Source of the DNA: Candidatus Altimarinota bacterium
Lineage (GTDB): Bacteria > Patescibacteriota > Gracilibacteria > BD1-5 > UBA2023
Length of the DNA: 64,000 nt
Assembly: GCA_043741945.1 (NCBI GenBank)
Contig: JAYTZT010000001.1
Location: forward strand, 48,617 to 112,616
Reading direction: 5' to 3'
The notes beneath the pieces were generated by a model, which was not told where the DNA came from, searched no databases, and worked only from the letters and a program-made list of their open reading frames with translations. A program made the position numbers and the translations under genes. Shown one piece after another: positions 18,478 to 37,482 of the stretch (position 1 is the first letter of the stretch; every line of letters begins with the position of its first letter).

Positions 18478-18802
18478 ATGTCCACCTCTAGATCCACTCT
18501 CGAACATCTCACTGATTGCCTAGAACTTGTACCTGATATCACTTTCAAACCAATGATGGGAGAGTATTGTGTGTACTCCGCATGACGCATATTCGGGCTC
18601 GTATGCGACGGTACACTTTTTCTCAAGACGACTCCTGAGACAATAGAGATGTTCGAAGACAAAGAAACGCGGGCATATCCAGGATCAAAAAATACAGCAT
18701 AGGTAAATGCCGAATGGCTCGAAGATAGAGAGAGCTCGCTAATATTGTGAATATAACACTCGAAAAGCTCCCGATACCAAAACCAAAGAAAAAGAAAATC
18801 TA
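18478..18802 (+). pseudogene. TfoX N-terminal-domain protein with an in-frame TAG and a frameshift
   Basis: MSTSRSTLEHLTDCLELVPDITFKPMMGEYCVYSAGRIFGLVCDGTLFLKTTPE..RAYPGSKNTA-TAG(18700..18702)-VNAEWLEDRE. The plausible C-terminus LANIVNITLEKLPIPKPKKKKI-TAA is then only reachable by a frame change in the AGAGAGAG run near 18727..18734. Confidence 0.6.
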
Positions 18803-20140
18803 ATCTACATTCAACTCTCCTCTGTACCGCTCTCTCGCGAGTCTCGCACTTTCTTTTTGATCCACTATTGGAGTATAGTATACCCCCTGGAGTTCTAGTG
18901 AGTGGATTTTTTTAGGATCGACTCATTCTAACTCTGAAATATATTTTTTGATAAATCGACACTCAGTATCGAATCTCTCTGACTGAAGGAGTGGATTGAA
19001 TATTCTGACAGGCTTGGGATCAGCTCATACCGATGCACTCCACTGCCAGTTACCATAATTGACTGCCTCATCATAGTCGATGAGATATTTTTTGAAGTAC
19101 TTTTCCCCGAGCCTCCAGTCTATCCCTAGATTCTTGGTAAGGAATGACGCCACCACCATACGCAGTCGATTGTGCATCCAGTTGGTCTCTATGAGTTGCC
19201 TGATTGCCGCATCCACAAGTGGATATCCTGTCTTGCCAGCCTGAAATCTCTCCCATAGATAGCTCGACTCATCCCGATCCCACTCGATAGTTCGTCTGCG
19301 TTCTTGGAACTCAATCTGATAGGTAAAAGGGAAATAATACGCAATCTGATACCAGAATTCTCGCCAAATAATCTCAGAGAGGAGGGTTGGATTATCTTGT
19401 ATCTTGATATATATCTCCCTGATAGAAAAAATCCCAAATCTGATATACGGAGAGAGGCGAGTCGAACCGTCTACGGCAGGCAGGTTGCGGAGATCGTCAT
19501 AGTGAGCAAAGTCTCGCTCAAGTCGAGATCTACCGAATGCAAGAGTCCAGAGTGGGTGATGTGGCACACTGATGACTTCCTCGATTTCTCTGCGATCTGG
19601 TGGTGTGAACCATTTTGTACTATTTCCATGGAATTCTCGCATATTCAATCTCTCTGGATTGGCGATGAGAAACTTTTTCCAGAGCATCGAGTACGGTGTG
19701 AATACCTTGCGTTGCTCACACTCATGCGGCTCGACGATCAGGAAGTCCTGAAATGAATGAAAATCGACTCCACTTGCATCACAAATCCCGAGTATAGTAT
19801 CATCTCTCGCCTTCCCTCTTGGTGAATATGATCGATTGATATATACTGCGTTAATGTGGTATTTTTGTATGATTTCTTGTATTATTTCTTCTGGTTTTCA
19901 TTGATACACTGTGAGCCTACCTCCGACTTTTTGAAGGTCAGTATCGATCTCTTCGAGTGCCTCTCGTATCAGTCCGAAGCGTGGATCATCGCGACCAAAA
20001 TCCTCGATTGCCCGAGTATCATGGATAAATATCGGAAATATCTCTTTTGAGTTTTGTATCGCTTCGATGAGTCCAGTATTGTCATGGGTCCTGAGATCCT
20101 GACGAAATATAAAAAGGGTACGATTATGGATTTTTTTCAT
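18800..20140 (-). CDS. phr: deoxyribodipyrimidine photo-lyase (class I-like CPD photolyase)
   Basis: [80 protein letters not shown]. Fragments 19898 and 19025 plus a downstream extension join via TGA. TAG 18800..18802. Confidence 0.9.
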
Positions 20141-20184
20141 AAGCAGAGTATAGCAAAAAATCATAAAATGTATATACTCACTCT

Positions 20185-20787
20185 ATGTTTTTTCCATTTT
20201 TCTCACTCGCGATCTATCTCATTATCTGGTGACTCATGTCACTCGGTATACTCCCAGATATATCGAATCTCTTCGAACTCTCGAATACTCTGGGTCCATG
20301 GACACTCCTCTCTATGATGTGACTCATCATATTCGCAGAGAGCATCATCTATCTCGGATTCTACCTTCCATGACAGTTCATCGCAGTCATCCTCGTGATC
20401 AGTGGTGTACACTCATGGCAAGATATCATCCCACTCACGCTCGTATCTATCATCGCTGTGACACTCTCTGCCATAGTCAACTATACTCTCGGATCACTCT
20501 GGCGGGAGAAAAATCAGAGCATAACACCTATAGACTACAAGAAGCTCCTCCTCTCAATGATACATATAAACACACTCGCACTCGCACTCTTCGAAGCTGG
20601 CAAGATGCGATATCCGAAGTGGATCATAGCAATAGTGGGCATACTCAATCTCCCCTACTATCTCCTCATGATAGCAGTCGTGTACTACTTCCAAGATGCT
20701 GCCCGAGAGCTCGGAGAAAATCCATACTATCTCCTCATCGCCCTCATCCTCTGGTGTGGATATAGCGTATGGAAGGGTAAGAAATAG
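20185..20787 (+). CDS. DedA/VTT-domain membrane protein
   Basis: FAESIIYLGFYLPGQFIAVILVISG resembles the DedA E-x-PG-E motif. 200 aa, 4 TGA. TAG 20785..20787. Confidence 0.6.
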
Positions 20788-20789
20788 GG

Positions 20790-20936
20790 CTACTTCTTCT
20801 TTCCTTTTCTACACCTATCTGAGCAGTATATGACACTGTCCCAGATAGTTTTCCACTTTTTCCGATTCGAAAAAGGTCTCTGGCAGACAGGACAGATTTT
20901 GGATTCACGCATGACTCATCGATCGAGGATTTTCAT
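20790..20936 (-). CDS. DUF2256 zinc-ribbon protein (48 aa)
   Basis: MKILDRGVMRESKICPVCQRPFSNRKKWKTIWDSVIYCSDRCRKGKKK, i.e. the C-x2-C ... C-x3-C pattern of DUF2256. Starts 12 nt after the upstream CPF gene. Confidence 0.7.
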
Positions 20937-20947
20937 AGTTTCGTGCT

Positions 20948-22078
20948 TTAGTTTTTCATAACATAGCGTTCGACCAGTTTCCAGTAGGCAAAAAATGATG
21001 CACAGTACTGAGTCACCTCTGGAACCATGTATGGATATGGCGTCTTCGTCACTCCTGTGATATGCGAGTAGAGAATATGATCAGTGAGGTATATGGCTTC
21101 GCGTGAGAGCGAGTGGAACTCATCTCTGAGTGCTTCGATCTCTCAGACATATATCTGGATTCCCTCGATATTGTCCTTCGCGAGCGAGATCATGAACTGT
21201 ATAACTCTCTCAGATACTGGGAATCTCTCGAAGTGTGAGGGTGCGAGTACGAGGATACGATTCGCAGATATATCACTCATCCAGTCAGGACGGATCGAGT
21301 AGTCAGTATATATGATCAGTGGGATCATCGGGTCGAGCGTGACATCTGACTGAGGTGGGAGTGGTGTCGTGAGCTTGAGTGGCACATATACGAGCATATT
21401 ATCTGGTACTGTTGTCGTCCATATATCATCATATTTTCGGTCGAGAAATGTCTTTCTCTGCGTCGAGCCTGTATATTCGTTGATATTGGTCTGGATGGTG
21501 ATATACTTCTTGGAAGAAAATGCTCCAGCGTTCCACTGCCAACTACACGTATTGGATGCGAGATCACCATCGAGGAGATGATAGTACATCCACTGACTCG
21601 GCGTCCACCAGTGAGCTCCACTCATATTGCAGGCTATCCCTGCGATATACATACGCAGATGGTTGTGCATATAACCTGTCTCATACAGTGCCTCTATACT
21701 CAGATCGATAGCCTCGATCCCGGTAGTAGCATCTATGAAAGCTCTCGGCATAGCATGAGTGAGGACATCCGCCTGATCGAACCGGATATCCAGCATCATC
21801 CGATCTGTCCCGAGTCACTCCCATACTCTGAGGAAATACTCTCTCCAAGCAAGCTCCTTCAAAAATTGCTCTATCTGGTGAGGAGCAAATCCTCTACCCA
21901 GTACTCGCCGTCTGATATCTGCTATCGTGATGAATCCTCTCGATATGTACGGTGAGAGCATCGTCACATGCCCTGTGAGATGATTACGATCTCGACCATA
22001 ACTGAGAGGATCTATAGAGTCGATGCGAGCCTCGATACTGGCTCTGTCGGTTGGGAATGTATAATTGGGGATTTTCAT
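20948..22078 (-). CDS. cryptochrome/photolyase-family protein with atypical architecture (FAD-binding domain at the N-terminus)
   Basis: 376 aa. LSPYISRGFITIADI, ELAWREYFLRVW, TGIEAIDLSIEALYETGYMHNHLRMYIAG, LASNTCSWQWNAG all lie in the first ~230 aa. An unassigned tail of ~140 aa follows. Fragments 21815 and 21143 plus an extension join via TGA. Confidence 0.75.
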
Positions 22079-22080
22079 AG

Positions 22081-22422
22081 TTATTTAGACTTCATGAGAT
22101 TCAGTTTTTTCATATATTCCTTGGCATCAGCGAGAAATCCATCAAATATCTGAGTAGCACCTGAAGTGACGACTCATTTCTCTCATGATTTCCTCAGTAT
22201 CAGATACTCCGATCCACGAGATTCACAGACGAGCATCCAGAGATTTTCGAGATTCACGCGATCGGTCTGGTCGACGATGAGGTATCATCGCTTCAGTGCT
22301 CGCTCATACTCCTCTCGCTCATAGATATAGAGATGATGTGGGACAGATCGACTCCCGAGCCTGATCCCTGACTTCTTCCCTTTCGAGAGGGCATCGATAT
22401 GTTCGAGTTTCATTTTTGGCAT
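22081..22422 (-). CDS. hypothetical protein (113 aa), first gene of the CPF-DUF2256 operon
   Basis: MPKMKLEHIDALSKGKK..HLYIYEREEYERALKRGYLIVDQTDRVNLENLWMLVCESRG... TAA 22081..22083 lies 2 nt before the next ATG. A second frame is also open under table 25 but reads less protein-like. Confidence 0.45.
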
Positions 22423-22524
22423 AGGAGTAGTATAGAGAAAAAGTCGATATCTCCAAGTGGACTATGAGAAATACAAAAAGATTTCTCGGCTTGCTAAAAA
22501 GAGAGGATTCCATAGAATATTCGG

Positions 22525-22730
22525 GCTAAAATAAACATTTCTTCATCGAATTTCCCACTAATTCGGCAATATATAGATACGCAAGGGCAACTGAAAAGTT
22601 GCTCAGCCCTTTCTTCGATATATTGTCGTAGGGAAGTGTTTATTTTAGCGAATAATGAGTGATGACTTCGGTTGCCCTTTTTATTTGCTAAAATAATCCA
22701 AAAATCCGTGAAGCCCTCATTTTAGCATTT
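22525..22730. promoter_or_regulatory. structured divergent intergenic region with four GCTAAAAT-type half-sites in two inverted pairs
   Basis: GCTAAAATAAACA (22525) pairs with TGTTTATTTTAGC (22638..22650). GCTAAAATAA (22687) pairs with TTTTAGC (22720..22726). Nested repeats: AAGGGCAAC (22583) with GTTGCCCTT (22671), and a GCAAC-TGAAAA-GTTGC hairpin. Confidence 0.4.
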
Positions 22731-22752
22731 ACTTTTGTAAGTGCTTTTTTAT

Positions 22753-24546
22753 ATGGACAATTCTCTCCGCAAGTGACGGATCACTCACCACTCGAACAAG
22801 ATTGGACTCTTCGATGCTGAGCGTCAATCCTTTATCAACCAGTCTGGCGATGTCGTCCTCTCTTTCCCATATCGGGACTGTATACTCGAATGAGGGATGT
22901 CCAGTGAAGAGGTAGGACGAGAAGAAAAATTTTTCCATACGACGATCGATCGAGCAGATATCGATGTTCTCAGGGAGCCAAAAGTCCTGACAGGATTTGA
23001 GCGGGTAAACTCGAGTGGAGTTCATACGATCACGGATCCGAGTGAGATAGAGTTTTTTGATGCAGAGGGCAATCTCCAGGAAGATCTCCTAATAAAATGA
23101 AACAATCTCATCGCTCTCTATTCTCTCAGGTCTCGTCTCGCAGGCAAAGTGAAACTCATCTATATAGATCCACCATACAATACTGGCAATGATGGTTTTC
23201 GCTACAATGATAGCTTCAACCAATCATCATGGCTCGTATTCATGAAAAATCGACTGGAGATAGCGAGAGAACTATTGAGGGATGATGGGGTGATATTTGT
23301 ACAGTGTGATGACAATGAACAGGCATACCTGAAAGTACTTATGGATGAAGTATTTGGGAGGGATAATTTTATAAACTGCATAGTTGCACAAATGAGCAAT
23401 TTATCGTGACACAAAATAGAACATGCAATACAATGAAGAAAATTCCCAAAAATCAAAGAATACATACTACTTTTTTCAAAAAATAAGACCGAAATAAAAT
23501 TGAAAATTCCCAAGATAAGTAAGGCAGAATGGGACGATGAATACAATCTAATTATTCCAAACATTAACGAAGAAGATATTATCGAAATTGAAGAATGGAT
23601 AGAAAATAAAGATTTTGAAAGAATAAATAAATACTTTTCAGATAAAAATATTATATCACTAAAAGAATATGCAAAAAAAAGTAACAGTGAACTAACTATA
23701 GAGTGGAAAAACTCAAATTCTTATAAGATATTTGCCAGCAAGCCAAATACTGCACTTAGAAATAAGGCAATGCAATTTGAATTCAATCAATGAATATATG
23801 CGATCCCCAATCAAAGATGAGACCTAAAAATTATTAAAACTGATTTTAATAGAGAAACCGATACAGCAAGAATAGAGCTAGTTTCAGCTCTAAAAAATTC
23901 ATCATCTTATGTCTGAGATATATGGTATGATATAGTCACGACTTGATGAGTAGCTCAAGAATGATGAGTTATCATGAAGAATGGGAAAAAACCTGAAGAT
24001 CTTATTTCGCAAATTATTCAAACTGCTACTGTAGAAGATGATATAGTTCTCGATTATCATCTCGGCTCAGGTACGACTACAGCTGTCGCACACAAGATGG
24101 GGAGACGATGGATCGGTATCGAGCAGATGGACTATATCGAGGATATCGCCAAGGTCAGGCTCCAGAAAGTGATCGAGTGAGAACAGGGTGGGATATCGAA
24201 GAGTGTGGATTGGGAATGAGGTGGAAGTTTTGTCTATATGGAACTGCGCACCTACAATATCGAATATCTCGAACGGATGGAATCTGCTCAGACCAAAGAG
24301 GATCTCCATGCTGTCTATATCGATATGGCTCGCAATGCATTTCTCCAGTTCTGGTTCGACCGTAAAAACTGGGAAAAAGATGAGAACTATCTGAAACTCA
24401 CACTCGAAGAGCAAAAGATCAAGCTCCGAGAACTCCTCGATATGAATCAGCTCTATCTCAATACGGGAGATATGTATGATGCTCGTCATAGCGTCTCTCC
24501 GCTCGATCAGTCCATAACCGAAAAATTCTATGGCAAAAAGAACTAA
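22753..24546 (+). CDS. mod: type III restriction-modification methyltransferase (Mod, N6-adenine, beta class)
   Basis: LIKGNNLIAL..KVKLIYIDPPYNTGND (motif IV), DDGVIFVQCDDNE, NGKKPEDLISQII, VLDYHLGSGTTTAVAHKMGRRWIGIE (motif I), GEQGGIS..GGGSFVYMEL. Five standard-code ORFs in frame 1 join through about 14 TGA. Confidence 0.9.
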
Positions 24547-27298
24547 AACTGCCATCAATGAGACTCTCTCAGAGTTTCTCTTTGCTCGGATCAGGGATGA
24601 TGCAGGATATGGTGAGTTCTGCCTGATTCCCCTCCCACAATATATCACAGACAATATCCATCCATCCAAATCGCTCCGTCCCTATCAGGAAGAAGCAGTG
24701 AGATATTTTATCTGGCTTTATGAAAATGAGGGGATTTCTGCTTGCAAACATCTCCTCTTCAATATGGCGACAGGAGCTGGGAAGACACTCGTTATGGCTT
24801 GTTGCATGCTCTATCTCTATGAGAGATGATATCGCAAATTCATATTCCTTGTGCATCAGGTACAGATACTCACACAGGCTCGTCGCAACTTCACAGACTA
24901 CAAGTTCGAGAAGTATCTCTTTCATCCTGATGGAATGAGTTTTTATGGAAAGCATGTGGGTACTCGGGATATCAAGACTTTTGATGAGGCAGGAGAAGAT
25001 GATATCAATATTATGTTTCTCTCGACCTCGCTTTTTTACAATCGTATCAAAGAATCAGGAGAAAACCAGCTCACGAGTGAAGACTTCTCCAAAAATGATG
25101 TCGTCATCATCGCCGATGAGGCACATAGACTCAATGTCGAAACGAGATCCAATAAAACTGAACTCGAAGAACTCCTGAACTGGGAATCCGCCGTCCAGAA
25201 CTCCATCGGTGCAAGGAAAGGCAATATACTCATCGAGTTCACAGCAACAGTCGACCTCGCCAATCGCAATATCCATGAAAAATACAAAGATAAGCTCGTA
25301 TACAAGTATGACTTCGTAGACTTCAATCGTGAAGGCTATGCGAAGAATGTCCAGTTCCTCTACAATAATGAGACACAAGTGGAGGATCAAAAGCGACTCC
25401 TCATCATCCATGCTGTCGCACTCTCTCAGTATCGCAAGATACTATTTCGAGAGCTCACGAAGAGTATCGTACATCCCGTGATCCTCGTGAAGTCCAAGAG
25501 AATCGCTGATAGTGAAGAGGATAGAAAATATTTTAATACTGTGATCAGTGATCTCTCTGTCCGAGATCTCGAAAAACTCAGAGAAGTCAAACATGATGAA
25601 TATCATCTCATAGCCAATCTCTTCGCTGAACTCGAAAATCGTGGCATCAGTCTTTCGGGTTTTGTTGCAAGTATACGAGAGGACTTTGCTCCACAAAATA
25701 CGATGATATACAATAGTAAGGTCAAGGAAAATGCATGAGCACTCTCAGATCTCGATAATCCAAAAAACAGGATGCGAGTGATATTCTCTGTAAATGCTCT
25801 CAACGAATGATGGGATGTCCTTGCACTGTATGATATCATACATTTTGATATCGGAGAAGATAAAAAAGTATCTCTCCAAGATATCCAACTCATCGGACGA
25901 GGAGCCAGATATTGTCCTTTTGATCTTCCTGAGAATTTTCAGGATGGACTGATGGGATCATACGATACGGTACGAGATCGGAGAAAGTTTGATGGAGCAC
26001 GCAGAGAATCTGCTCGTATACTCGAGACTTTTTTCTATCACTTTGTGAAGACGGGGATGTTTCTCGAAAATCTCCAAAAAGAACTGATGGGAGAAGGGAT
26101 CATCAGTGAGTGAGTGGAGAAACGAACAGTCGAGATGAAGCCACATTTCATCGCATCGGATACCTACAGGATGGGTTTTGTTCTCCAAAATCGTACAGAG
26201 AAACGATCACGAACAACTGAGGATGAGAAAAAAGATACTTTCGATAAAATAATCACTGTTTCATCATATGAGCTCCAGGCTCGTGGACTCACGGATCGTG
26301 AGGAAAATCAAAAAATAGCAGAACAAAAACCCGGAAGAATCGGATTTAGCGAAGATTTTTTCTCGATCCATATTCTCCGCAAGGCTCTTGTTCGAGCAGA
26401 AAATGGATTTTTCCGATTTGAGAACCTCAGGCAGCATATCATGGATTTATCGGGGATTGATGAATTTATCACTCGAGATCTCCAGCGGTATACGATCCAA
26501 TACTTTTTTGATGCTGAGAAGGATATATTCCGTCTCACTCCTCATGAGAAGATACAGCTCCTCATAGGTGCGATCCTCCCAGAAGTGAGAAAACATATCG
26601 ATATGACTCTCCCGAAGATCGTAGGAAGTCCGATTTTTCGTCCTGTTTCGATCTCCCATGCTTTCTCGAAACAAAAAGATCTTTTCTTTGCTTCATTCCC
26701 GATGATCAACGAGGCAACAGGAAAGCTCGAATTTGCTCGACATGATGAGCGGATGAAGCCACAGACAGATAATCCAAATATTGATCTCGAACTCGATATA
26801 TGAAGGCAAGATTGGTATGCGTATACTGAAAATTATTGAACGAGTGAAGAAAAGAAATTCGTCCGATTTATGGAAACTAAGATGGATGCACTACGAAAAA
26901 AATATCCTGATTGCGAGATATTCCTTGTAAGAAATGAACTCGAATATTGGATGTATGGACTTTCCAATGGAAAAAGATTCTCCCCAGATTACCTCATGTT
27001 TATCAGTGATATAAAAAGTAAAAAACTCTACTATCAATGTGTATTTGAGGTGAAATGATCTCATCTCGAAGAAAAAGATGAATGGAAAGAAAAAGCTCTC
27101 CGAGAAATCCGAGATGCTACAGAACTCTCATGGACAGTAGATAGAGAGAATCCGGAAAATACAAAAAATTATCAAAGATATATCGACTCTGTACAACAAC
27201 AGTGATATGAAAAAATTCGAAATATTGGATTCGGATTTTATAATTCGGAAGGTAAGGAATATGAGTTTATCGAAGAGTTTGATTCTTTACTCTTATAG
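24530..27298 (+). CDS. res: type III restriction enzyme Res subunit (SF2 helicase plus C-terminal nuclease)
   Basis: LRPYQEEAV, NMATGAGKTLVMA (Walker A), IIADEAHRL (DEAH), FTAT, and the C-terminal PD-(D/E)xK-like FSPDYLMF..CVFEVKG. Overlaps mod by 17 nt. TAG 27296..27298. Confidence 0.9.
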
Positions 27299-27311
27299 TA
27301 TCATGCCATAG

Positions 27312-27965: not shown

Positions 27966-28142
27966 ATGTATCATGCAATCCAAGTCTCAAAAATATTTTT
28001 GCAATACTCAGTGATCTGAATCGAGTATAAGTATACAAAATATACAATACTATATACTTCTTGCAAGGGATTTTTCTTTTCATATATTGATATCTGGATA
28101 TAGTGTGGATGTATTTGATTTATCTCTTCACATATAGCTTAT

Positions 28143-28973: not shown

Positions 28974-28976
28974 TCC

Positions 28977-29480
28977 CTACAATATCACTCCCTCCTCCAC
29001 CAATATCCCTGTAGTCAACACCTCTTCATGATAGCTCCGAGAGCTCACGACTCGACAGAGATAGATCGCGTGGTCTCATCCACCATCTGCTAGCCTCTCG
29101 ATCTCCTCGAGTTCTATATATCAGGCAATTCCTCCTATCATACCATCATCTCATAGGAGTCACTTCTTCGAGAGATACTTTATCTTATCATAGGTTTTCC
29201 CTGATTTTTTGCCCATGACTCGGACAAGTGATGCGTGCTCAGGAGCGAGGATCTGGAGTATCCCTCTATGACTCGACTGCCAGTTCGAGAAAGACTGTGT
29301 ATCATGATAGAGGGCGATGATATAGTGCTTCGGAGACATACTCACAGGGATCACATATGTCATGATATTCATATTCCTAGGAGATTCTTGCAGGATTTCC
29401 ATTTGAGGATTTTTCTCTTGAATACTCTCTGTGATGAGCGAATAGACAGGATATGATGGGAGATTCCAGGGTTTTCGCAT
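28977..29480 (-). CDS. flavin reductase-like (FMN-binding split-barrel) domain protein
   Basis: 167 aa. NIMTYVIPVSMSPKHYIIALYHDTQSF..GILQILAPEHASLVRVMGKKSG..DKIKY..GYIELEEIERLADGGGDHAIYLCRVV follows the Flavin_Reduct pattern. The standard-code ORF 29160..29621 extends through TGA to TAG 28977..28979. The start is chosen 15 nt after the upstream stop. Confidence 0.5.
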
Positions 29481-29607
29481 AGTATGGCGTAGAGTGTTAC
29501 GAGAGTTTTCGGACGAATACTTCTTTCGCCTTTCGGATCTTCTCGATATCGACTTTTGCGAGTGTCGAGAGGATATAGGGAGTACGCCCAGACTGGAATA
29601 TGCTTTT

Positions 29608-30960
29608 ATTATGATCGACAAAGTCCCAGTAGAGATGCGTCATTGGACAGGTTTTCTCCTTCACACTATACTGACATCACTTGCAGTAGTCACTCATCTT
29701 CTCGATATAGTTGCCCCCTGAGATATACGGCTTGGTCGCGAGACGCCCGCCATCGCTATACTGGCTCATCGCCATCACATTGGGCGTGACGACCCACTCG
29801 AACGCATCAGTGTACATCTCAGCGAACCACCTGTTGACTGAGAGTGGATGATATCCCATCAGAAGTGTATAGTTCCCGACGATCATAAGGCGCTCGATAT
29901 GATGTGAGTAGTTCTCACTCTGGACTCTCTTGACTACCGTATCTATACAATTCATACCTGTGATATCTCCTATATTTTTCTCTCCATCATAGTTCCACCA
30001 ATTCTGTGGTAATGGTTCATGATGGTTGAGTGCATTCTGAGTATATATATCATTGTAGTGGTAAAGATAGAATTGCCTCATATACTCTCTCCATCCGAGA
30101 ATCTGACGGACAAAACCCTCGACACTATTAAGTGGAGCATGCCATCCTATCGCCGCATCGAGGACCTCAGACGGATGCAATATACCAAAATTGATCGCGG
30201 TCGAGAGCATGGAGTGATGCACTCTCATATCGTCCTCATACATGGCATCTTCGAGTCGTCCGAAGTCAGCATAATGATACTCCAAAAAGTACTGCAGGAG
30301 AGATAGAGCATCCGATCTCGACACTGGGAGTGAGAACGATATATCTGGGGCACCATAATACCTACGAGCCTCATCGATATAGATAGTATTCTCTGGTTTC
30401 CATCACCACGAGAGAATATGAGTATTATCGAAGTTCCGATTCTCACTATCATAGTTCCACTTTCCTCCAATAGGTTTACCATCATCCTCCATGAGGATAT
30501 TGCGAGATTTTCGCATATACCTGTAAAAAGTCTCCATAATAGGTGGCTTCTCGAATTGCTCTCTGAATTCTATATGGTTTATGAGAAACTGTCTATTCGC
30601 AAATATATGGAGTGATACTCCCTTTAGTATATATCTATCGATCTTGCGAGCGAGATACTCTTCCGATGATCTCATCAGTACAATATCTAGGATCCCTGTT
30701 TTTCCTGCAAAATCGAGGATCCCCTCTCGATAACTCTCCGACTCTATCCAGTGAGTCGTATATCCGAGTCTCTCACACTCTACCAAGAATTCTTTTGCGG
30801 TAGCGTACTCAGCGATCAGACTCCGAGTATTGAAGGTGAGATCGCCCATAGGAGAGGTGATACGAGATCCAGTGAAGAGTATGAAAAAAATATCCGTCAC
30901 TCAAGGTTCGATATAACGGGTATTACACTGATCATAGAGGATCCATTGGGCTTTTTTCAT
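29608..30960 (-). CDS. FeS-BCP / (6-4)-photolyase-type CPF protein (COG3046, PhrB-like), with its C-terminal tail frameshifted
   Basis: HSMLSTAINFGILHP, PLNSVEGFVRQILGWREYMRQFY, HHIERLMIVGNY, and candidate 4Fe-4S Cys ligands NCIDTV..SDYCKGC..KTCPMDA. After CPMDA the conserved LYWDFVDHNK...KEVFVRKLS-TAA (to 29496) continues only in another frame. The in-frame reading stops at TAA 29608..29610. Confidence 0.85.
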
Positions 30961-30969: not shown

Positions 30970-32511
30970 TTAGTCAAAGAGTGAGAGATTGATATCTGAT
31001 TTTTGTATTTCTTTCTTTTTTGTTTTTTTATGAGAGAATCACTTGCGACTCGCATGTTTCTCTACGATCGCCTTTTTCACTCTCGGATCGATATGTGACT
31101 TCATATTGTAGAGGATCACTCGTGCTGTTCTATTGGCCTCCTCGACATCGACTATAGGAAACGGATAGTCTCGCCCAAGGACGAAGTCATACTCGATTGA
31201 CTCCATCTCGGATATTCCCCACGGACTCGCCTGAAGGTGCTGCGGCAGTCGAGCGAGCTCTGGCAGATATGCATCCACGAAGAGACCATCACTATCCTTA
31301 TCATGGAGTTGCTTCATCGGATTATATATTCGGATCGTATTGATCCCCATAGTTCCTGACTGCATCTGGAGTTGCATATAGTGGATTCCTGGCTCATAGT
31401 CAGTGAAAAGTCCAGCAAGCCAGTGAGCAAATCTCCCCTGCCATGGCTGCATACAGGTACATGTGACAAATGATACCAGTGTGGCTCGTGCTCGGAAATT
31501 GACCCATCATATCGCCTGGAGCTGTCTCACGATTCCATCGATAAATGGAACTCCCGTTCGAGCATTCTCGATCGCTGTGATAATCTCCTCATCGTACTCG
31601 GTACGGATCGTATCATAGAGCTTGACAGCATTCATCGTCTCGAGTCTTGGCTCATCTTCAAGCTTCTGGATGAAGTGTGATTGCCAGTGCAGTCGGGAGT
31701 GGAATGCCTGAAGTGATCTGAGAAACTTGGCGTCTCACTTTCACTTGAGATCGTGCATACGAGCCCAAGTCATATGAACTACCTGTTTCAGTGATATACA
31801 TCCATAGGCGAGATATACCGATATTCGAGAACTCGCTTCCTGTCACTCTATCGGGCGACTCATACCACCCATATATTTCCGACCTCGGGATATGAGGAAT
31901 GATGCGAGTGTTTTTTGTCATTCTTTTTCTCATCAAGCCTGGATGTGAGGGTTATCCATATTGCGTTGCCAGTCATCTCCAACAATCTGAATATACCAAT
32001 ACTCCTGTCACCGAGGAGGAGGTAGTATCGGTATCATCATGCGACTCTGCCAGAGGCGAGTCCAGTCGTCACGAGATGAGAGTCGTCTCACGACTCAATT
32101 GGTCGGATACTCAGTCCATACTATATTCTTGGATCTGAGGTACTTGCCCATCATGATATCTCGATCATAGGTGATGGCATTCCCCGTCTCTTCATGAGAA
32201 AAAACACAGTCCACATCATAGACATCGAGAATATATTTCATCACATCTGATATATTGCGTTCGAATATTATGAGTGACACACCAATATTATGAAGAGACT
32301 CATTGAGATCTATGAGCGAATCCTCGATAAATTGCCTATGAAAATTTGAAAAGTCAGGAGCAAGCGTGACACGGGACTCAAAACTATAGAAAGCAATCAC
32401 TGGAATATTTTTATTTTTTCATAATATCATGGCATCAGTCAAAGGACGATGATCACTTACACGAAGATCCCGCTTGTACCAGACGAGGATGATTTTTTGT
32501 TTTTTCTGCAT
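30970..32511 (-). CDS. cryptochrome/photolyase-family protein (513 aa, subfamily not assigned)
   Basis: KIILVWYKRDLRVSDHRPL, GVVRRLSSRDDWTRLWQSRM, SRISVYLAYGCISL, FHSRLHWQSHFIQKLEDEP, TGVPFIDGIVRQL..GWVNFRARA, DYEPGIHYMQLQMQSGTMGINTIRIYNP. Fragments 32095 and 31039 plus the middle join via TGA. Confidence 0.85.
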
Positions 32512-32633
32512 GTATTTGAGCAATATAGTACGGATTCTCTATCTTTCTTCTACTTTTTTCTATTAGAAAAAGGGCTCTGGCAGGCAGGATAGATATTGGA
32601 TTCACGCATGATTCACCGATCGAGTATTTTCAT
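32457..32633 (-). pseudogene. decayed paralogue of the DUF2256 gene
   Basis: MKILDRGIMRESNIYPACQSPFSNRKK-TAG-KKDRESVLYCSNTCRKNKK... About 87 percent identical by eye to 20853..20936 over the first 84 nt. The first Cys ligand is TGT->TAT and the conserved Trp is TGG->TAG (32550..32552). Confidence 0.65.
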
Positions 32634-32640
32634 AGGAGAT

Positions 32641-33420
32641 TTATGCTTTTTTTTGCATACTTCAGACAATCTTTCGGATAAGGAATCGTGGAGTAAATCT
32701 CACAGACTCTGTGAGTATAAAGTTCATCCATCCATATACTGCGACGACCTGACCCTGCATCATCGCATAATATCCATACTCTGCGACTTCTCGGGAAGTG
32801 GGAAGTTTCCTTCACTGGAAGAGTTTTGAGCTATCCATGTGAGATACTGACGCGAATCCTGACTCAGTAGGACCAGGACAGAGTGCAGTGACCGTGACTC
32901 ATGTAGAGACGAGTTCCTCTGAGACCGCCTCAGAAAATGATAGAACATAGGCCTTCGTCGCAAAGTATACAGCCATACCAGGACCTGGCTGGAATGCTGC
33001 AGTCGATGCGAGATTCATGATACGACCATATTTTCCCTCTATCATGCTCGGGAGGAAGAGCTTCGTCATATGAGTGAGCGACTTTATATTGAGGTCGATC
33101 ATCTGACCTTCCTTTTCCCAGTTAGTATAAGAGAATTTTCAAAAATCTCAAAATCATGCATTATTAATAAGGTGATGAACTGTGAGTCAGAGAGCACTCA
33201 CTTCAGAAAATACTTCTGCGACAGCATTCGGAAGAGAGAGATCCTTCTCGATGATATGGGCTTTCACGCCATGAGTCTCTTGAAGTTCAGAAGCGAGTGT
33301 CTCGAGCTTGGGTCAACTGCGTGCTACGAGGATGAGATCATCTCAATGACGAGCTGCTATACGAGCGAGCTCGAGTCCGATACCAGAAGAAGCTCCAGTA
33401 ATGAGGGTAGTATGTGACAT
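32641..33420 (-). CDS. short-chain dehydrogenase/reductase (classical SDR)
   Basis: [18 protein letters not shown], catalytic YFATK, PGPTES. 259 aa with about 8 TGA. TAA 32641..32643. Confidence 0.9.
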
Positions 33421-33530: not shown

Positions 33531-33839
33531 TTATTTCTTTATCCTATATCGTATCCATTCATAGAGCATATGTAGTCTCAGTATGAAAAATGCCCTAACT
33601 GAATAACGTCGGATAATTCTAAGTCAAAATACGAGTACTCCCGATGTAAGGATCATGAGCCATCCTGCTGGGATAGGTGTGAGGAGGCCTACAATCCCAA
33701 AAAGAAATAAGAATACAGCAAAAAATATCCTCACTCCAAGTGGGAGAATCATAACACGCTGATGCCAACGATGGATACGAATTCGATAAAATATCTCTCG
33801 AAATTTTTCTTTATATGTTTTGTTTCTAATATAGTTCAT
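33531..33839 (-). CDS. small PGPGW-like membrane protein
   Basis: 102 aa. FLFGIVGLLTPIPAGWLMILTSGVLVFG. ORF 33624..33839 extends through one TGA to TAA 33531..33533. Confidence 0.4.
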
Positions 33840-33853
33840 AGCTATGATAATAT

Positions 33854-33884
33854 GAAAAATCCCTTGAAGAACAAGGGATTTTTC
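33854..33884. terminator. bidirectional hairpin terminator
   Basis: GAAAAATCCCTTG-AAGAA-CAAGGGATTTTTC, immediately after the PPIase stop. Confidence 0.7.
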
Positions 33885-33887
33885 ATA

Positions 33888-35069: not shown

Positions 35070-35816
35070 ATGGATCTCATTAGTATTAGTCAATTTGATA
35101 TGGTGTACAACGCCTTCTCATTTGCCATCGCAGGTATGGGTGCAGCGACTCTATTTCTCTGGCTCGAGAGATCTCAGGTAGCACCCGAGTATCGTACAGC
35201 TCTCACGATCTCAGGACTTGTGACAGCAATTGCGACATATCACTATATTCGTATATTCAATAGCTGGGATGGAGCATACGAGATAATGGGCAATACTATA
35301 TCAGTTACTGGTCAGGCATTTAACCATGCATATCGATATGTAGACTGGCTCCTCACAGTACCCCTCCTCCTCATTGAGCTCATACTTGTGATGGGACTTT
35401 CACGCAAAGAAACCTACTCGAAGTCAATCTGGTTCGGAGTCATGGCGGCCCTCATGGTCATTCTCGGATATCCAGGAGAGACCGCTACTGATATCTCTAC
35501 CAAGCTCATCTGGTGGATTCTCGGGATGATACCTTTTATCTATCTCGTATACCAGCTCTTCGTCGGACTCAGTGCCTCTATCAAGAATCAACCTGCTGAG
35601 ATCAGGAGCCTCATAGTTACGGCACGATGGATCATAGTGGCAACGTGGTGTTTTTATCCTATAGTATATATCCTCCCTCTCCTCGGACTTGAGGGATCGA
35701 GTGCTATGGTAGGAGTTCAAGTCGGATATACGATCGCTGATCTCCTCGCCAAGGCAGTATTCGGTGTCTACATATACTTCATCGCCGTACGCAAATCAGA
35801 GTCAGTCAAGAGATAA
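35070..35816 (+). CDS. type-1 (microbial) rhodopsin, proteorhodopsin/xanthorhodopsin-like, DTE motif
   Basis: 248 aa, seven hydrophobic helices. Helix C RYVDWLLTVPLLLIEL gives D92, T96, E103. L100 sits at the spectral-tuning position. H58 lies in TYHYIRIF. Helix G GYTIADLLAKAVFG gives D224 and the Schiff-base Lys K228 (35751..35753). No in-frame TGA. Confidence 0.92.
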   Translation: MDLISISQFDMVYNAFSFAIAGMGAATLFLWLERSQVAPEYRTALTISGLVTAIATYHYIRIFNSWDGAYEIMGNTISVTGQAFNHAYRYVDWLLTVPLLLIELILVMGLSRKETYSKSIWFGVMAALMVILGYPGETATDISTKLIWWILGMIPFIYLVYQLFVGLSASIKNQPAEIRSLIVTARWIIVATWCFYPIVYILPLLGLEGSSAMVGVQVGYTIADLLAKAVFGVYIYFIAVRKSESVKR

Positions 35817-35829
35817 TCTCCATGATTAC

Positions 35830-35862
35830 AAAAAATCCGAGTCATATGACTCGGATTTTTTT
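35830..35862. terminator. bidirectional rho-independent terminator
   Basis: AAAAAATCCGAGTCATATGACTCGGATTTTTTT, between the convergent rhodopsin and TspO-like genes. Confidence 0.8.
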
Positions 35863-35875
35863 GATGATAGGGGTC

Positions 35876-36622
35876 TTACCAGAATTTGAGAGCCTTCAGA
35901 GTAGTTCTCTTGTTTCTCAGAGACTGTATGATATAGAATCAGATAGTGACTGCATATATGACAACTCCTCCCTGTATCTCGAGTATTGGATGTGCTATAT
36001 ATATACCGAAAAGTGTCCAGAGGAATACGCCTGATATGATATATGTTCTATATCGACACTGGAGCTCAGATACTACAAGGAGGATCACACCGAGTGCAAC
36101 TATAGCGTAGTAGAAATCTCCAATTCCACCAAATGACCAGCCCATATAGCGTATCCAAACTGTCACATTCAATGCTGTTGCCATGATAATCCAGCCAAGT
36201 GTGATATCGATACTCGATCTGATTATGATATGCGAGTCTCTCGTACGAGAGAATGTATAAACGAGCAACATGAGTATAGCGAGCATGATAACGAGGGATG
36301 TACTGATCCATAGATTGCCCCATGGGATGAGCCATAGAGCTGTGAGAGCTATAGCGAGAGCAAACCCAATAAGAGACATTGTATCAAGAGTATTTTTGGA
36401 TCTCTGGAAAAACGCTATGCATACTCCTACAATGATCCACGAGAGATAGATCAACGACCATATCGCAAAAGTAAATCCCGCAGGTGTGACTGATGTGGCA
36501 AACATAGCAGAGATATCTGCCTGTGTCATGCCTCCGATGAGATATGGGGATCCTGGTATACTCACGAGAGTCGTGAGTCCGATCGTGAGGAGAGCTGAGA
36601 TGAGTAGGAGATATCTGATCAT
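35876..36622 (-). CDS. TspO/MBR-related multi-pass membrane protein (tentative)
   Basis: 248 aa, Trp-rich. TPAGFTFAIWSLIYLSWIIVGV and LGWIIMATALNVTVWI resemble the TspO helix motifs. The start MIRYLLL is chosen downstream of the DUF1295 stop. Extends through TGA to TAA 35876..35878. Confidence 0.4.
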
Positions 36623-36687
36623 AAGAGAAAAATTATAAGCATATATAGTGTATACTTTTTTCTGAGAATACAACTCTTGATCATTCG

Positions 36688-37482
36688 CTATTTCCGAGGC
36701 CACCATGGAACGAAGACGCTCGTTTTCTCTTTGTACTCTTCCCAGTTTGGTCTGCCTGCGTATCTCGCCTCTTGGAGTGGTACGCCCGAGACGAACAGGA
36801 GTAGGATGGTGATGACGAAAAATGATACCAATCACCAATATGAATACGGCAGAGCAATGAGGCTGATCCCGAGCCAGAATACACTCTCTCCGAAATAGTT
36901 CGGATGTCGAGAGTACCGATAGAGTCAGTTCACGAATATCTCTCCAGGCTTCTTGGTCTTTATGAACTTCGATAGTTGTATATCAGAAATCATTTCGAAT
37001 ATAAGACCAAAAAACGAAATTACTGATCCAAAGATCATACACCATACTACTCTATAACTGATCTCTCATCATATGAGAAGCCATTCTGGAGTATCTATAT
37101 ATCCTAGATTCACCACCAGTATCGCTGTTGCGACCACGAGCATCAGGATCATCTGGAGCATATACACTTGGACAAATGACCGAACGACAAAATACCACCC
37201 ACTCCCCCACTCTTCCCGCCACTTGGCATATCGTGCATCTTCTCATCGCTCTTTGAGTTTTCGGAGTCAGATATGCGATACGATACGAGCTCCCCAGAGG
37301 CATACGAGTGCCGTGACGACAGTCTGTGATATCTGTAAATCTGACTGGAGATACGATATGACTGCAATAAGTACAAAGCCAAAACCCCAGAATACATCGA
37401 CGATGGAGTTATCCTTGATTCTGAGGGAATAGAGAAACAAGAGGATATATGAGATGAGGAGAGTGAGGAGGATGGAGGTCAT
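36688..37482 (-). CDS. DUF1295-family membrane protein (steroid 5-alpha-reductase / ICMT-like fold)
   Basis: NSIVDVFWGFGFV, LWGARI, GLYRYSRHPNYFGESVFWLG, VSGVPLQE, KTSVFVPW. 264 aa via about 6 TGA. TAG 36688..36690. Confidence 0.8.

Follow-up and report, generated by a model that had tools for sequence, protein, structure and literature searches.

Why would a tiny-genome bacterium keep four CPF genes, a set of accessory genes and a rhodopsin gene close together? A preliminary description of the window (the whole 64,000-nucleotide stretch of DNA that was analyzed) had proposed a photoprotection and light-harvesting package in a code-25 CPR bacterium of a sunlit habitat. In a Pfam profile search the four CPF calls and most of the accessory calls held, and the profile-HMM assignment that had been suggested as a check confirmed the CPF, DUF1295 and flavin-reductase calls. 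The four genes encode different light-driven DNA-repair or light-sensing flavoproteins which, with helper genes, form a conserved block of known families.

Reading TGA as sense produced long ORFs that are broken up under table 11. TGA fell on glycine at 5 of the 14 sites alignable to Bacteroidota homologues and on tryptophan at 0 of 14, and a TGA of the window is matched by a true Gly codon in one hyp113 homologue. In the island genes, TGA makes up 10–39% of Gly codons, and GC3 is higher than in the rest of the window. On this codon evidence, TGA is assigned to glycine in the tiny-genome host. By label the closest loci belong to Ca. Gracilibacteria or Peribacteria, which agrees with the proposed code-25 Gracilibacteria-type CPR host. 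Many relatives bear isolate labels (GFS_, GL##_Up/DN) of the kind used for MAG sets from glacier-fed streams, which fits the suggested sunlit habitat.

Layout and conservation of the island

Two minus-strand, operon-like strings had been described, one running from an SDR gene to a flavin-reductase-like gene and the other from hyp113 to a DUF2256 gene. Their gene content is as described, but they are parts of one ancestral string, being contiguous in relatives L010, L011 and L012; in L010 and L011, hyp113 directly abuts Flavin_Reduct. In the window the island is split by a 6.5-kb insertion (22423..28976, plus strand) that lies outside the light module. Its cargo comprises type III R-M genes for Mod (22753..24546) and Res (24530..27298), followed by a fragment of TaqI_C (27324..27965) and a gene for a Bro-N protein (28143..28973), with Pfam matches to PF01555, PF04851, PF12950 and PF02498. 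The Flavin_Reduct/hyp113 junction carries other cargo in L003/L013, L004/L016 and L008. Judged from these arrangements, the R-M/Bro-N block is a mobile insertion between Flavin_Reduct and hyp113 that here splits one ancestral string. That string would have run co-directionally as (mem102 > DUF2256 >) SDR > DUF2256 > NewCRY > FeS-BCP > Flavin_Reduct > hyp113 > NewPHL ... class I photolyase.

Gaps of 2 to 16 bp separate the genes for the 513-aa CPF, FeS-BCP and Flavin_Reduct, and likewise those for hyp113, NewPHL and DUF2256; these gaps are our only basis for inferring that the string genes are co-transcribed. Gene order and content are kept in at least 14 related loci from Gracilibacteria-type MAGs (57–93% protein identity), together with the chromosomal flanks (ABC transporter, MiaB, FtsA/FtsZ). 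Because the same genes recur in the same order in so many loci, the arrangement is not a matter of chance. No transcription factor was recognisable in the island, and a search for a shared operator upstream of its units found none.

The first gene of the downstream string encodes an SDR, as had been called (259 aa; 32641..33420, minus strand; PF00106, 154 bits). A promoter scan placed a promoter-like site upstream of it at 33472-33445. An SDR gene adjoins FeS-BCP or NewPHL in Flavihumibacter and in 17 of the 80 metagenomic loci. Further upstream lies the membrane protein mem102 (102 aa; 33531..33839, minus strand), which has no Pfam match. Its orthologues in relatives (61–71% identity) head the string directly upstream of DUF2256 in L007, L008 and L010, and this DUF2256 is followed by SDR in L007 and L010.

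Class I photolyase, FeS-BCP, NewCRY and the zinc ribbons

The class I-type CPD photolyase (PhrA, 446 aa; 18800..20140, minus strand; PF00875 and PF03441) matched the S. tokodaii photolyase (2e0i, 262 bits) and the A. nidulans class I enzyme (1tez, 245 bits). Equivalents of E274, W277, N341, M345, N378, W382 and W384 are all conserved, and orthologues with 77–80% identity stand at the string end in relatives. An alternative start lies at 20164. The multi-pass membrane protein mem200 (200 aa; 20185..20787, plus strand) is divergent from PhrA and convergent with DUF2256; it has no Pfam match and a weak DedA match (E = 0.004). The same inverted gene lies between NewPHL and PhrA in L003, L007 and L013.

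FeS-BCP, a prokaryotic (6-4) photolyase (487 aa; minus strand; PF04244), had been assigned to the right family but placed at 29608..30960, whereas its ORF spans 29497..30960. It matched A. fabrum PhrB (4dja, 273 bits) and R. sphaeroides CryB (3zxs, 253 bits). With these and the V. cholerae (6-4) photolyase, all of the FeS-BCP/CryPro group, it shares the DPRP N-terminal domain and the four [4Fe-4S] cysteines, all of which align; a DUF2256 neighbour is common to it and to FeS-BCP loci of many phyla. Identity to the non-CPR proteins recovered in a genome scan is 33–43%. Unlike known FeS-BCPs, the window protein is recoded with TGA-Gly and is encoded between NewCRY and Flavin_Reduct.

Both DUF2256 zinc ribbons of the preliminary description were recovered, one intact and one a decayed remnant. 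The intact gene (47 aa, CPxC...CSxxC; 20790..20933, minus strand) scored 62.7 bits against PF10013, and the pseudogene (32500..32635, start approximate, minus strand) scored 32 bits; translation of the latter gives an in-frame stop and a Tyr in place of the first zinc-ligand Cys. An 88-nt direct repeat with 88% DNA identity links 20851-20938 at the intact gene, the reference copy, to 32548-32635 in the pseudogene. The pseudogene site, upstream of NewCRY, holds an intact DUF2256 in L003, L007, L009 and L012. DUF2256 adjoins FeS-BCP in 24–25 of 67–68 loci, and in loci from gammaproteobacteria it stands ahead of NewCRY.

The previously noted 513-aa CPF (30970..32511, minus strand; PF00875 and PF03441) fits the NewCRY definition in PMC7736829 and can now be named NewCRY-like. 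Its best PDB match reached only 111 bits. Position E274 is replaced by R, N341 by F, N378 by H, W382 by L and W384 by M, so that neither the known residues for CPD binding nor the proximal Trp of the chain used in photoreduction remain. Judged from this alignment, the protein is without the substrate and electron-transfer (Trp-chain) residues of photolyase. Identical replacements occur in homologues from gammaproteobacteria and another Patescibacteria genome. A role as flavin photoreceptor or regulator would be more probable for NewCRY, and the DUF2256 zinc ribbon, encoded ahead of it in several phyla, is a possible partner. It might instead repair another lesion or substrate (e.g., RNA or a different photoproduct), or bind DNA independently of light, leaving the island without a sensor of its own. 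As the first CPF of the repair operon, 9 bp from FeS-BCP, the protein keeps both CPF domains and FAD-pocket residues (such as the TDYE motif and the FRxRA Arg), and PMC7736829 suggests signalling for NewCRY by elimination, since nothing else seems feasible and with no function shown. We nevertheless consider such a role in repair or light-independent binding rather doubtful, given that the equivalents of E274, N341, N378, W382 and W384 are all replaced, consistently across phyla.

NewPHL and its candidate partners

The gene described as an atypical CPF (CPF376; 20948..22078, minus strand) can be identified, from the architecture given in PMC7736829, as a NewPHL, an inverted-topology photolyase for single-stranded DNA. 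Only PF03441 is matched, in the N-terminal half (residues 72-195, aligned to residues ~255-411 of canonical photolyases). As in the NewPHLs of Emmerich et al. (2020, NAR; DsNewPHL and MmNewPHL; PMC7736829), the FAD catalytic domain is N-terminal, all CPD-repair residues are conserved, a C-terminal domain of ~150 aa follows and there is no antenna domain. Co-occurrence with class I and (6-4) photolyases and NewCRY also matches what that study reports for the family. The C-terminal motif, conserved across 103 homologues, is SFF..WK, compared with the GFF described there. The nearest non-CPR homologues are from Chitinophagaceae and other Bacteroidota (~50% identity).

Characterized NewPHLs combine an incomplete Trp triad with slow photoreduction (18-30 times slower than in a class II photolyase) and no antenna, yet are active in vitro without any partner (PMC7736829). 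The text of that paper makes no mention of genomic context or operons. The window gene differs in its setting, which includes a Flavin_Reduct-like gene and, upstream, a small gene that is fused to NewPHL in some homologues. The small gene, hyp113 (113 aa; 22081..22422, minus strand), lies 2 bp upstream of NewPHL. It has no Pfam match even at E ≤ 10, only 103 representatives among 1.84 billion proteins, and an AF2 model (pLDDT 79) with no fold match in the PDB; by sequence it is a novel, rare family in Gracilibacteria. In P0296, P0339 and P0315 it forms the N-terminal part of a fusion with NewPHL, and it adjoins a CPF gene in every examined locus with enough flank. hyp113 is also paired with other CPFs, a class I photolyase in L171/L172 and, directly, FeS-BCP in L012, L015 and L018, and may therefore be an accessory of CPFs in general instead of one reserved for NewPHL.

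The Flavin_Reduct-like protein (167 aa; 28977..29480, minus strand) was correctly called, with a modest PF01613 score (34.3 bits against a cut-off of 27), and orthologues are present in relatives. Its subfamily occurs in 10 of 80 NewPHL loci, a count depressed by short contigs, versus 0 of 67 loci that have FeS-BCP but no NewPHL (Fisher P = 0.002). DUF2805, the small protein of Bacteroidota-type clusters, behaves similarly (35/80 versus 2/67, P = 2e-9); it has a helix-turn-helix-like sequence and is unrelated to hyp113 (hhalign probability 0.1%). The Flavin_Reduct subfamily and the small upstream protein thus track NewPHL, not FeS-BCP, an association that is new here. With Flavin_Reduct in only 10 of the 80 loci, it is not obligatory for NewPHL.

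hyp113 and the Flavin_Reduct-like protein appear, from gene neighborhoods, to be partners of the little-studied NewPHL. In the mechanism we propose, Flavin_Reduct and the small protein (hyp113 here, DUF2805 in Bacteroidota-like contigs) would be dedicated to NewPHL; the reductase would keep or restore the NewPHL FAD as active FADH- without light, and hyp113 would serve as an extra module at the N-terminus. Flavin_Reduct always directly follows FeS-BCP in Gracilibacteria (16 bp downstream in the window) and does so in several Bacteroidota-like loci (L005, L103, L104, L107, L125, L143), so it could serve FeS-BCP instead, re-reducing its FAD or [4Fe-4S] cluster or handling a lumazine antenna, with the NewPHL association a by-product of all three genes traveling together. 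We judge this unlikely: against it stand the absence of the subfamily from all 67 FeS-BCP loci without NewPHL, the Flavin_Reduct > NewPHL pairs whose flank lacks FeS-BCP (L131, L135, L138, L165, L101), and L090, where Flavin_Reduct overlaps the stop of a hyp113::NewPHL fusion gene by 4 bp on a contig that has no FeS-BCP.

Rhodopsin, membrane proteins and origin of the island

The DTE rhodopsin call (248 aa, no TGA codons; 35070..35816, plus strand; PF01036) was borne out by the DTE motif and the Schiff-base Lys. The protein belongs to the xanthorhodopsin family of proton pumps, matching Gloeobacter rhodopsin (6nwd, 261 bits) and xanthorhodopsin (3ddl, 228 bits), and carries the RYVDWLLTVPLLLIE motif and the Lys of ADLLAK. 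It shares the DTE motif and Schiff-base Lys with these two but has IWW where they have (L/I)WG; since Trp replaces the fenestration-opening Gly of the carotenoid-antenna position, the protein is expected to have no carotenoid antenna. The window showed neither retinal nor carotenoid genes. Between the rhodopsin gene and the convergent TspO-like gene lies a perfect palindrome of 32 nt (35830..35861) with A and T runs at its sides, probably a bidirectional terminator. Both public contigs with an identical rhodopsin end ~43 bp past its stop. Among loci covering this slot, only the window, L006 and L010 hold a rhodopsin. Its presence in the proposed package therefore stands but core membership does not, and it would be an optional neighbor, a green-tuned, antenna-less xanthorhodopsin-type proton pump whose retinal would have to come from a source other than the genes of the window. 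Earlier papers already report DTE rhodopsins from environmental Gracilibacteria (PMC8406219, PMC9166423).

The multi-pass membrane protein at 35876..36622 (248 aa, minus strand) had been called TspO-like. It has no match of its own in Pfam, NCBIfam or the PDB, and the call is unconfirmed; 2 of 7 orthologues match PF03073 (best E = 1e-4), making a distant TspO/MBR relative possible. Orthologues occur in L004, L006–L008, L010 and L013, with or without rhodopsin. The DUF1295 call was sound (264 aa; 36688..37482, minus strand; PF06966, 182 bits); this membrane protein of a steroid-reductase/ICMT-like superfamily has weaker PF02544, PF04191 and PF04140 matches and orthologues in L007, L013, L016, L018 and L086. 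Together with SDR, these two proteins could plausibly handle photo-oxidised lipids or tetrapyrroles.

Nearly the same set (SDR, FeS-BCP, Flavin_Reduct, NewCRY, DUF2256, DUF2805, NewPHL) recurs in Flavihumibacter and in standard-code metagenomic contigs, probably of Bacteroidota, and the module is therefore common. In 80 metagenomic NewPHL loci we counted FeS-BCP 39 times, DUF2805 35, SDR 17, NewCRY 16, DUF2256 15 and Flavin_Reduct 10. Bacteroidota-type clusters (Flavihumibacter rivuli CP092334; L103, L104, L143) have the same families in partly the same order, SDR / FeS-BCP > Flavin_Reduct > (NewCRY > DUF2256 >) small protein > NewPHL. The Gracilibacteria version differs in its hyp113, an added class I photolyase, code 25 and, in some species, a nearby rhodopsin. 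The preliminary description could not name the module from the literature and had asked whether its gene order was common and already described: essentially the same gene set, in partly the same order, is common beyond this genome and CPR, and we found no published description.

The Rhodobacter sigmaE-ChrR singlet-oxygen regulon is a light-inducible photolyase/SDR regulon. With the LitR regulon of Pseudomonas, a light and photo-oxidative response, the island has in common photolyase, CryB-type CPF, SDR and uncharacterised membrane proteins; NewPHL, NewCRY, Flavin_Reduct and hyp113 are not among the genes named in the accessible part of that account (PMC9758184). The island has neither LitR/MerR, LOV, ECF sigma or ChrR genes nor the genes of those regulons for furan or cyclopropane fatty-acid synthase, FAD-amine oxidase and folE.

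Independent genes might simply have accreted at a recombination-prone spot, sharing no regulation and not cooperating at the protein level, with SDR, DUF1295, the TspO-like protein, mem102 and mem200 unrelated to light. The region is an insertion hotspot that includes housekeeping genes (cyclophilin, YbaB), terminator-like hairpins separate PPIase, mem102 and SDR, and no regulator or shared operator was found. Such accretion seems highly improbable when order is kept across at least 14 genomes down to 57–61% identity, NewPHL and FeS-BCP of other phyla have neighbors from the same families, and gene fusions and overlapping stop/start codons exist. Published light regulons also unite photolyase, SDR and CryB (PMC9758184), and DUF1295 and photolyases are known neighbors of DTE rhodopsins.

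The conserved, co-directional block makes a dedicated photorepair and photoprotection package a reasonable reading. From identity ranking, the island is probably of ancient foreign origin, with at least the NewPHL gene looking Bacteroidota-like. We think it likely that a TGA-Gly Gracilibacteria lineage now inherits it vertically as an island for photorepair and photoprotection, the proposed NewPHL partners included. By analogy with their families, the class I enzyme would reverse cyclobutane dimers in duplex DNA, NewPHL those in single-stranded DNA, and FeS-BCP (6-4) photoproducts, all three driven by blue or near-UV light and reduced FAD.

Reading frame, gene order and an insertion hotspot

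Read with the standard bacterial code, the region breaks up into a patchwork of short ORFs; with TGA as a sense codon, long ORFs cover the window from end to end. At sites alignable to Bacteroidota homologues, TGA falls at glycine in 5 of 14 and at tryptophan in none of the 14, and one homologue of hyp113 (a 113-aa protein, 22081..22422(-)) has a true glycine codon where the window has TGA. The 12 closest loci in a species-representative genome collection (64–81% identity) are labelled Candidatus Gracilibacteria, Peribacteria or Patescibacteria. Because TGA aligns to glycine and never to tryptophan, and because the closest loci carry these labels, the premise of a code-25 CPR host is borne out, with TGA as sense throughout the window. 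No tRNA genes, including tRNA-Gly(UCA), were found within the 64-kb window by ARAGORN; a full-length tmRNA gene at 5214-5655(-) (Rfam RF00023, 85.9 bits) was missed by the same program. Two large SLH-domain surface proteins with Ig-like or PKD repeats (1347-4076(+), with a ten-glycine run, and 10467-12116(+)) point to an S-layer-type envelope. Public protein sets read TGA as stop or as Trp: P0025, the public version of the 376-aa protein NewPHL, is cut at a TGA after 218 aa, and in P0241, the public version of a window gene, TGA is translated as Trp. The island of light-related genes is therefore largely invisible or mistranslated in standard annotation, and both annotation and homology searching are systematically impaired for this lineage.

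Synteny was probed by searching 15 related loci with the window proteins (tblastn, code 25), and two further neighbourhoods were inspected. The same gene order and chromosomal context were seen throughout the loci compared, with an ABC transporter on one side and MiaB/FtsA/FtsZ on the other. The fullest uninterrupted form, in the related locus L010, reads TspO-like, rhodopsin(-), YbaB, cyclophilin, mem102 > DUF2256 > SDR > NewCRY > FeS-BCP > Flavin_Reduct > hyp113 > NewPHL > PhrA. In the window, 6.5 kb lies precisely between Flavin_Reduct (28977..29480(-)) and hyp113. This segment holds type III restriction-modification genes (22753-27298(+); Mod, 597 aa with 14 TGA codons, and Res, 922 aa with 8), a TaqI_C fragment (27324-27965(+)) that encodes only a specificity domain, has no ATG at its start and is probably the remnant of a type IIG enzyme, and a gene for a Bro-N/DinD-like protein (28143-28973(+)) whose stop and the convergent stop of Flavin_Reduct are 3 bp apart. 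The richness of the restriction-modification genes in TGA codons argues that they circulate within code-25 organisms. A second Gracilibacteria MAG (L008, 3756-8172) has a copy 65–74% identical at this same junction, proximal to FeS-BCP; CPF513 (the NewCRY-like protein), Flavin_Reduct and SDR were not detected on its 8.3-kb contig. Elsewhere the Flavin_Reduct/hyp113 junction carries a helicase with DUF4011 (L003/L013) or a peptidase M15 (L004/L016), and this differing cargo among relatives marks the junction as an insertion hotspot. The two operon-like strings of the preliminary description were thus correct in gene content but are not two units; they are one ancestral island, uninterrupted in L010 and split here by the 6.5-kb insertion.

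In LitR and sigmaE-ChrR regulons the cognate regulator (LitR/MerR with LOV or B12; ECF sigma with the ChrR anti-sigma) is encoded alongside its targets, whereas no LitR/MerR, LOV/B12, ECF sigma or ChrR family was seen among the island proteins scanned (Pfam, NCBIfam). A shared operator or promoter upstream of SDR (32641..33420(-)), hyp113, PhrA/mem200 (mem200, 20185..20787(+)), the rhodopsin and DUF1295 (36688..37482(-)) was considered and rejected, as only AT-rich low-complexity words were common to these regions. Two strong hairpins whose stems both start with ATCCCT resemble intrinsic terminators, one after the cyclophilin gene (33847-33891, perfect 20-nt arms) and one after mem102 (hairpin 33498-33522; mem102, 33531..33839(-)). 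If they are terminators, SDR through Flavin_Reduct would be transcribed apart from mem102. As a concept, light regulons uniting photolyase, CryB and SDR are established (PMC9758184).

Four photolyase-type proteins and a rhodopsin

Pfam confirmed nearly all of the families that had been assigned from the sequence (photolyase domains, DPRP, DUF2256, Flavin_Reduct, SDR, DUF1295 and Bac_rhodopsin); the curated NCBIfam cut-off was reached by none of the island's CPFs, the light-driven DNA-repair or light-sensing flavoproteins. PhrA (18800..20140(-)) has two domains, an alpha/beta photolyase domain at the N-terminus (PF00875, 119 bits) and an FAD-binding domain at the C-terminus (PF03441, 217 bits), and among PDB entries it is closest to class I/III CPD photolyases (S. 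tokodaii, 262 bits; A. nidulans, 245 bits). The equivalents of the E. coli catalytic and Trp-chain residues E274, W277, N341, M345, N378, W382 and W384 are all kept, and DYDEAVNYGNWQW matches the E. coli motif in the alignment. PhrA is a class I-type CPD photolyase and is predicted to carry out light-dependent CPD repair in duplex DNA. The FeS-BCP protein carries the DPRP N-terminal domain (PF04244, 95.7 bits) and matches A. fabrum PhrB (4dja, 273 bits) and CryB (3zxs, 253 bits). All four [4Fe-4S] cysteines align (MNC, DYCKGC and TCP, against MNC, DYCDTC and ACP of PhrB). By family it is a prokaryotic (6-4) photolyase, with (6-4) repair and a lumazine antenna predicted; the family had been named correctly at the outset, but the ORF (29497..30960(-)) runs to 29497 (487 aa) and not to 29608.

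The 376-aa protein (20948..22078(-)), earlier called an atypical CPF, is indeed a photolyase-domain protein, and its predicted architecture now allows it to be named. PF03441 is matched at residues 72-195 only and PF00875 is absent; residues 36-188 align with residues 255-411 of A. fabrum PhrA. The FAD catalytic domain is thus N-terminal, an antenna domain is missing, and ~170 aa follow at the C-terminal end. NewPHL, a class that repairs CPDs only in single-stranded DNA and has FAD as its sole chromophore (PMC7736829), is defined by just this inverted topology, and we assign the protein to that class. The CPD active-site residues are kept (KELAWREY, YMHNHLRM and DGDLASNTCSWQW) and are invariant across the family. 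The C-terminal Z-domain of the class (~150 aa) is described as having one conserved Trp and a GFF motif (PMC7736829). The window protein, 103 NewPHL homologues and the fusion protein P0296 have SFF..WK and not GFF, the latter taken from the published description; SFF..WK is close to the described "GFF plus one Trp" (PMC7736829). The protein database contains over 5,000 NewPHL family members; the closest outside CPR, at ~50% identity, come from Chitinophagaceae and other Bacteroidota. Genes for DprA and for the type IV pilus/competence-type ATPase and platform proteins PilB and PilC lie in the same window (12802-13902(+) and 46612-49035(+)). Since transforming DNA enters the cell single-stranded and NewPHL is specific for single-stranded DNA, a tie of NewPHL to the repair of imported transforming DNA is conceivable.

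The 513-aa CPF (CPF513, 30970..32511(-)) keeps both CPF domains, with the replacements E274->R, N341->F, N378->H, W382->L and W384->M. The same five occur in 8 homologues from three lineages, including gammaproteobacteria and another Patescibacteria genome. NewCRY proteins are defined as CPFs with both domains in which the Glu (E274) and Asn (N341) that bind substrate are missing, and are presumed to form a photoreceptor class (PMC7736829). By that definition the protein is NewCRY-like; the class is also marked by clustering with V. cholerae Cry2 in the superfamily network, and our assignment is made from the loss of E274 and N341. On a distant code-25-like contig (L087, JGI 3300081833, 8060-10799), a NewCRY-like gene and the start of NewPHL overlap in entirely different surroundings (GroES/EL, SufBCD), which indicates that this pair also travels alone.

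DUF2256 (PF10013) is recognized as a zinc ribbon of ~40 aa with CxxC...CxxC. Both zinc ribbons of the preliminary description belong to this family, but only the copy at 20790..20933(-) is intact (62.7 bits). The other (~32500..32635(-), 32 bits) has an in-frame stop and CPxC changed to YPxC, and is for these reasons a pseudogene. The two copies share an 88-nt repeat of 88% identity, and in relatives an intact DUF2256 stands at the site upstream of NewCRY. From this comparison, the decayed copy and the intact gene that follows NewPHL are recent paralogues of each other.

The rhodopsin (35070..35816(+)) matches PF01036 (137 bits) and Gloeobacter rhodopsin (GR, 261 bits); RYVDWLLTVPLLLIE, the DTE motif region in helix C, and ADLLAK, with the Schiff-base Lys, align with GR and xanthorhodopsin (XR). 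The original call of a DTE rhodopsin is thereby upheld, and the protein is a seven-helix type-1 rhodopsin and a predicted proton pump of the xanthorhodopsin family. The carotenoid-fenestration Gly (LWG in XR, IWG in GR) is Trp (IWW), so no carotenoid antenna would be expected, and Leu at the spectral-tuning position suggests absorption of green light. No retinal or carotenoid genes were seen in the window. The closest relatives outside CPR are 60–67% identical and taxonomically mixed.

L006 and L010 are the only related loci with the rhodopsin in the same slot; it is cleanly missing there in L004/L016, L007, L008 and L013. A very recent acquisition could be read from the lack of TGA among its 17 Gly codons, but the argument is weak: P is ~0.03 against the rate across the window, and FtsA and FtsZ carry almost as few TGA codons. 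The identity of the rhodopsin to those of two relatives (92% and 85%) runs parallel to that of the neighbouring genes, which makes patchy loss likelier than recent gain, and recent acquisition was rejected in favour of patchy retention and loss. A perfect palindrome follows the gene (35830-35861), and both public contigs with an identical rhodopsin (Logan L001 and L002) end at it, ~43 bp past the rhodopsin stop, which suggests an assembly break or strain variation. DTE rhodopsins in Gracilibacteria have already been reported (PMC8406219, PMC9166423), and the literature also records other phyla in which DTE pumps have photolyase and DUF1295 genes beside them. Another case of rhodopsin-photolyase adjacency is a Methylophilaceae chromosome (L071, CP159827, 8196-11497), where FeS-BCP is directly preceded by two rhodopsin genes in tandem (47% and 31% identity to that of the window).

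For the protein proposed as TspO-like (35876..36622(-)), a TspO identity is at best tentative. It has no Pfam match at E <= 10, no NCBIfam match and no PDB match by sequence or profile, and TspO_MBR (PF03073) is touched by only 2 of its 7 orthologues (best E = 1e-4). A single-sequence AF2 model of a TGA-free fragment was unusable (pLDDT 51).

NewPHL and its candidate partners

The preliminary description could not name the combined module from the literature. We likewise found no paper describing the gene set or a Gracilibacteria photolyase cluster, and none that combines DUF2256 with photolyase or pairs FeS-BCP with a flavin reductase; the gene set itself, however, is widespread outside CPR. 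Flavihumibacter rivuli has the order SDR(-), then FeS-BCP > Flavin_Reduct > DUF2805 > NewPHL. A metagenome scan with the NewPHL alignment, in which ORFs were sorted by family HMMs, gave 80 standard-code loci. FeS-BCP occurs in 39 of these, SDR in 17, NewCRY in 16, DUF2256 in 15 and hyp113 in none. Some hold the whole set, for example L103 (FeS-BCP > Flavin_Reduct > NewCRY > DUF2256 > DUF2805 > NewPHL). That NewPHL is always clustered in Bacteroidota was considered and rejected, because in Nibrella it stands alone.

A second set of 67 loci, centred on FeS-BCP and without NewPHL, holds DUF2256 in 25, class I photolyase in 25 and NewCRY in 6. Flavin_Reduct is present in 10/80 NewPHL loci versus 0/67 of this set (P = 0.002), and DUF2805 in 35/80 versus 2/67 (P = 2e-9); both track NewPHL rather than FeS-BCP. 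Flavin_Reduct > NewPHL pairs also occur without a nearby FeS-BCP (L131, L135, L138 and L165). The window Flavin_Reduct matches PF01613, the FMN-binding split-barrel domain, over residues 35-147 with 34.3 bits against a gathering threshold of 27, and its orthologues in L003 and L005 match more strongly; its PDB match is weak (4l82, E = 0.014).

In Gracilibacteria the slot directly upstream of NewPHL is filled by hyp113, which has no Pfam match and belongs to a family of only 103 representatives among 1.84 billion proteins. It could be a divergent DUF2805/TIGR03643, which occupies the same operon slot in Flavihumibacter; BLASTP (E = 0.12) and hhalign (probability 0.1%) led us to reject this identity. 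The AF2 model of hyp113 is a decent alpha/beta structure (pLDDT 79), and its best Foldseek PDB match (the UvrC C-terminal half, Hjc-like nucleases; E = 0.2, TM 0.3) is not significant, so this fold assignment was rejected too. In three family members the N-terminal half of hyp113 is fused to a complete NewPHL, and on one of these contigs the fusion gene shares 4 bp with a Flavin_Reduct gene, and a class I photolyase comes next. Elsewhere, on code-25 contigs, hyp113 lies ahead of a class I photolyase and DUF2256, and it abuts FeS-BCP in L012, L015 and L018. Given these other neighbours, we regard hyp113 as CPF-associated, with NewPHL as its strongest link.

NewPHL lacks an antenna, its Trp triad is incomplete, and its photoreduction is 18–30 times slower than that of a class II photolyase; even so, anaerobic purification from cells yields the protein fully reduced (PMC7736829). 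We hypothesize that this biochemistry leaves room for a partner; a dedicated flavin reductase would be a simple candidate that fits both the slow photoreduction and the reduced state in cells. The Flavin_Reduct-like reductase would keep the FAD of NewPHL reduced, offsetting the truncated Trp chain and missing antenna. A small accessory partner would be hyp113 in code-25 CPR, at times fused to NewPHL, and DUF2805 elsewhere. The full proposal is that NewPHL in vivo is not stand-alone but a multi-protein system, with a dedicated reductase for light-independent, NAD(P)H-driven FAD reduction and a small accessory protein (hyp113/DUF2805), and that in parallel DUF2256 is an effector of NewCRY and FeS-BCP; we offer it as a speculative model that is rather unlikely to be right as it stands.

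Origin and significance of the island

The island genes have a GC3 of 0.41–0.56 against 0.23–0.43 for most of the window, hold TGA-Gly codons at genome-typical frequencies and are syntenic across lineages down to 57–61% identity. This combination, with the identity ranks, is consistent with the genes having been acquired long ago (NewPHL being Bacteroidota-like) and then inherited vertically. The light-related genes amount to ~9.5 kb, close to 1% of a ~1-Mb genome (the yardstick being L018, a 1.05-Mb Patescibacteria chromosome), in a lineage whose members are commonly portrayed as host-dependent with minimal metabolism. That the block is kept across many species argues for sustained sunlight exposure, for example in stream or surface biofilms. 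With the families confirmed and the order conserved, the original reading of a photoprotection and light-harvesting package is broadly reasonable.

The component families are already known, the module is common elsewhere, and the rhodopsin part is variable and has been published. New are the occurrence of four named CPF classes as a conserved island in Gracilibacteria, its insertion-hotspot history, and a partner hypothesis that is centred on NewPHL and involves a novel family of small proteins. As classes, NewPHL and NewCRY date only from 2020, when sequence networks were used to define them, and we found no genomic-context analysis of either class in the literature. The Flavin_Reduct, small protein and NewPHL arrangement, the hyp113::NewPHL fusions and the pairing of DUF2256 with NewCRY/FeS-BCP offer concrete candidates for partner proteins. 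These candidates suggest how a photolyase with poor photoreduction stays reduced and, if the hypothesis is true, the reductase would be the first partner of any photolyase to be described as dedicated to its "dark activation".
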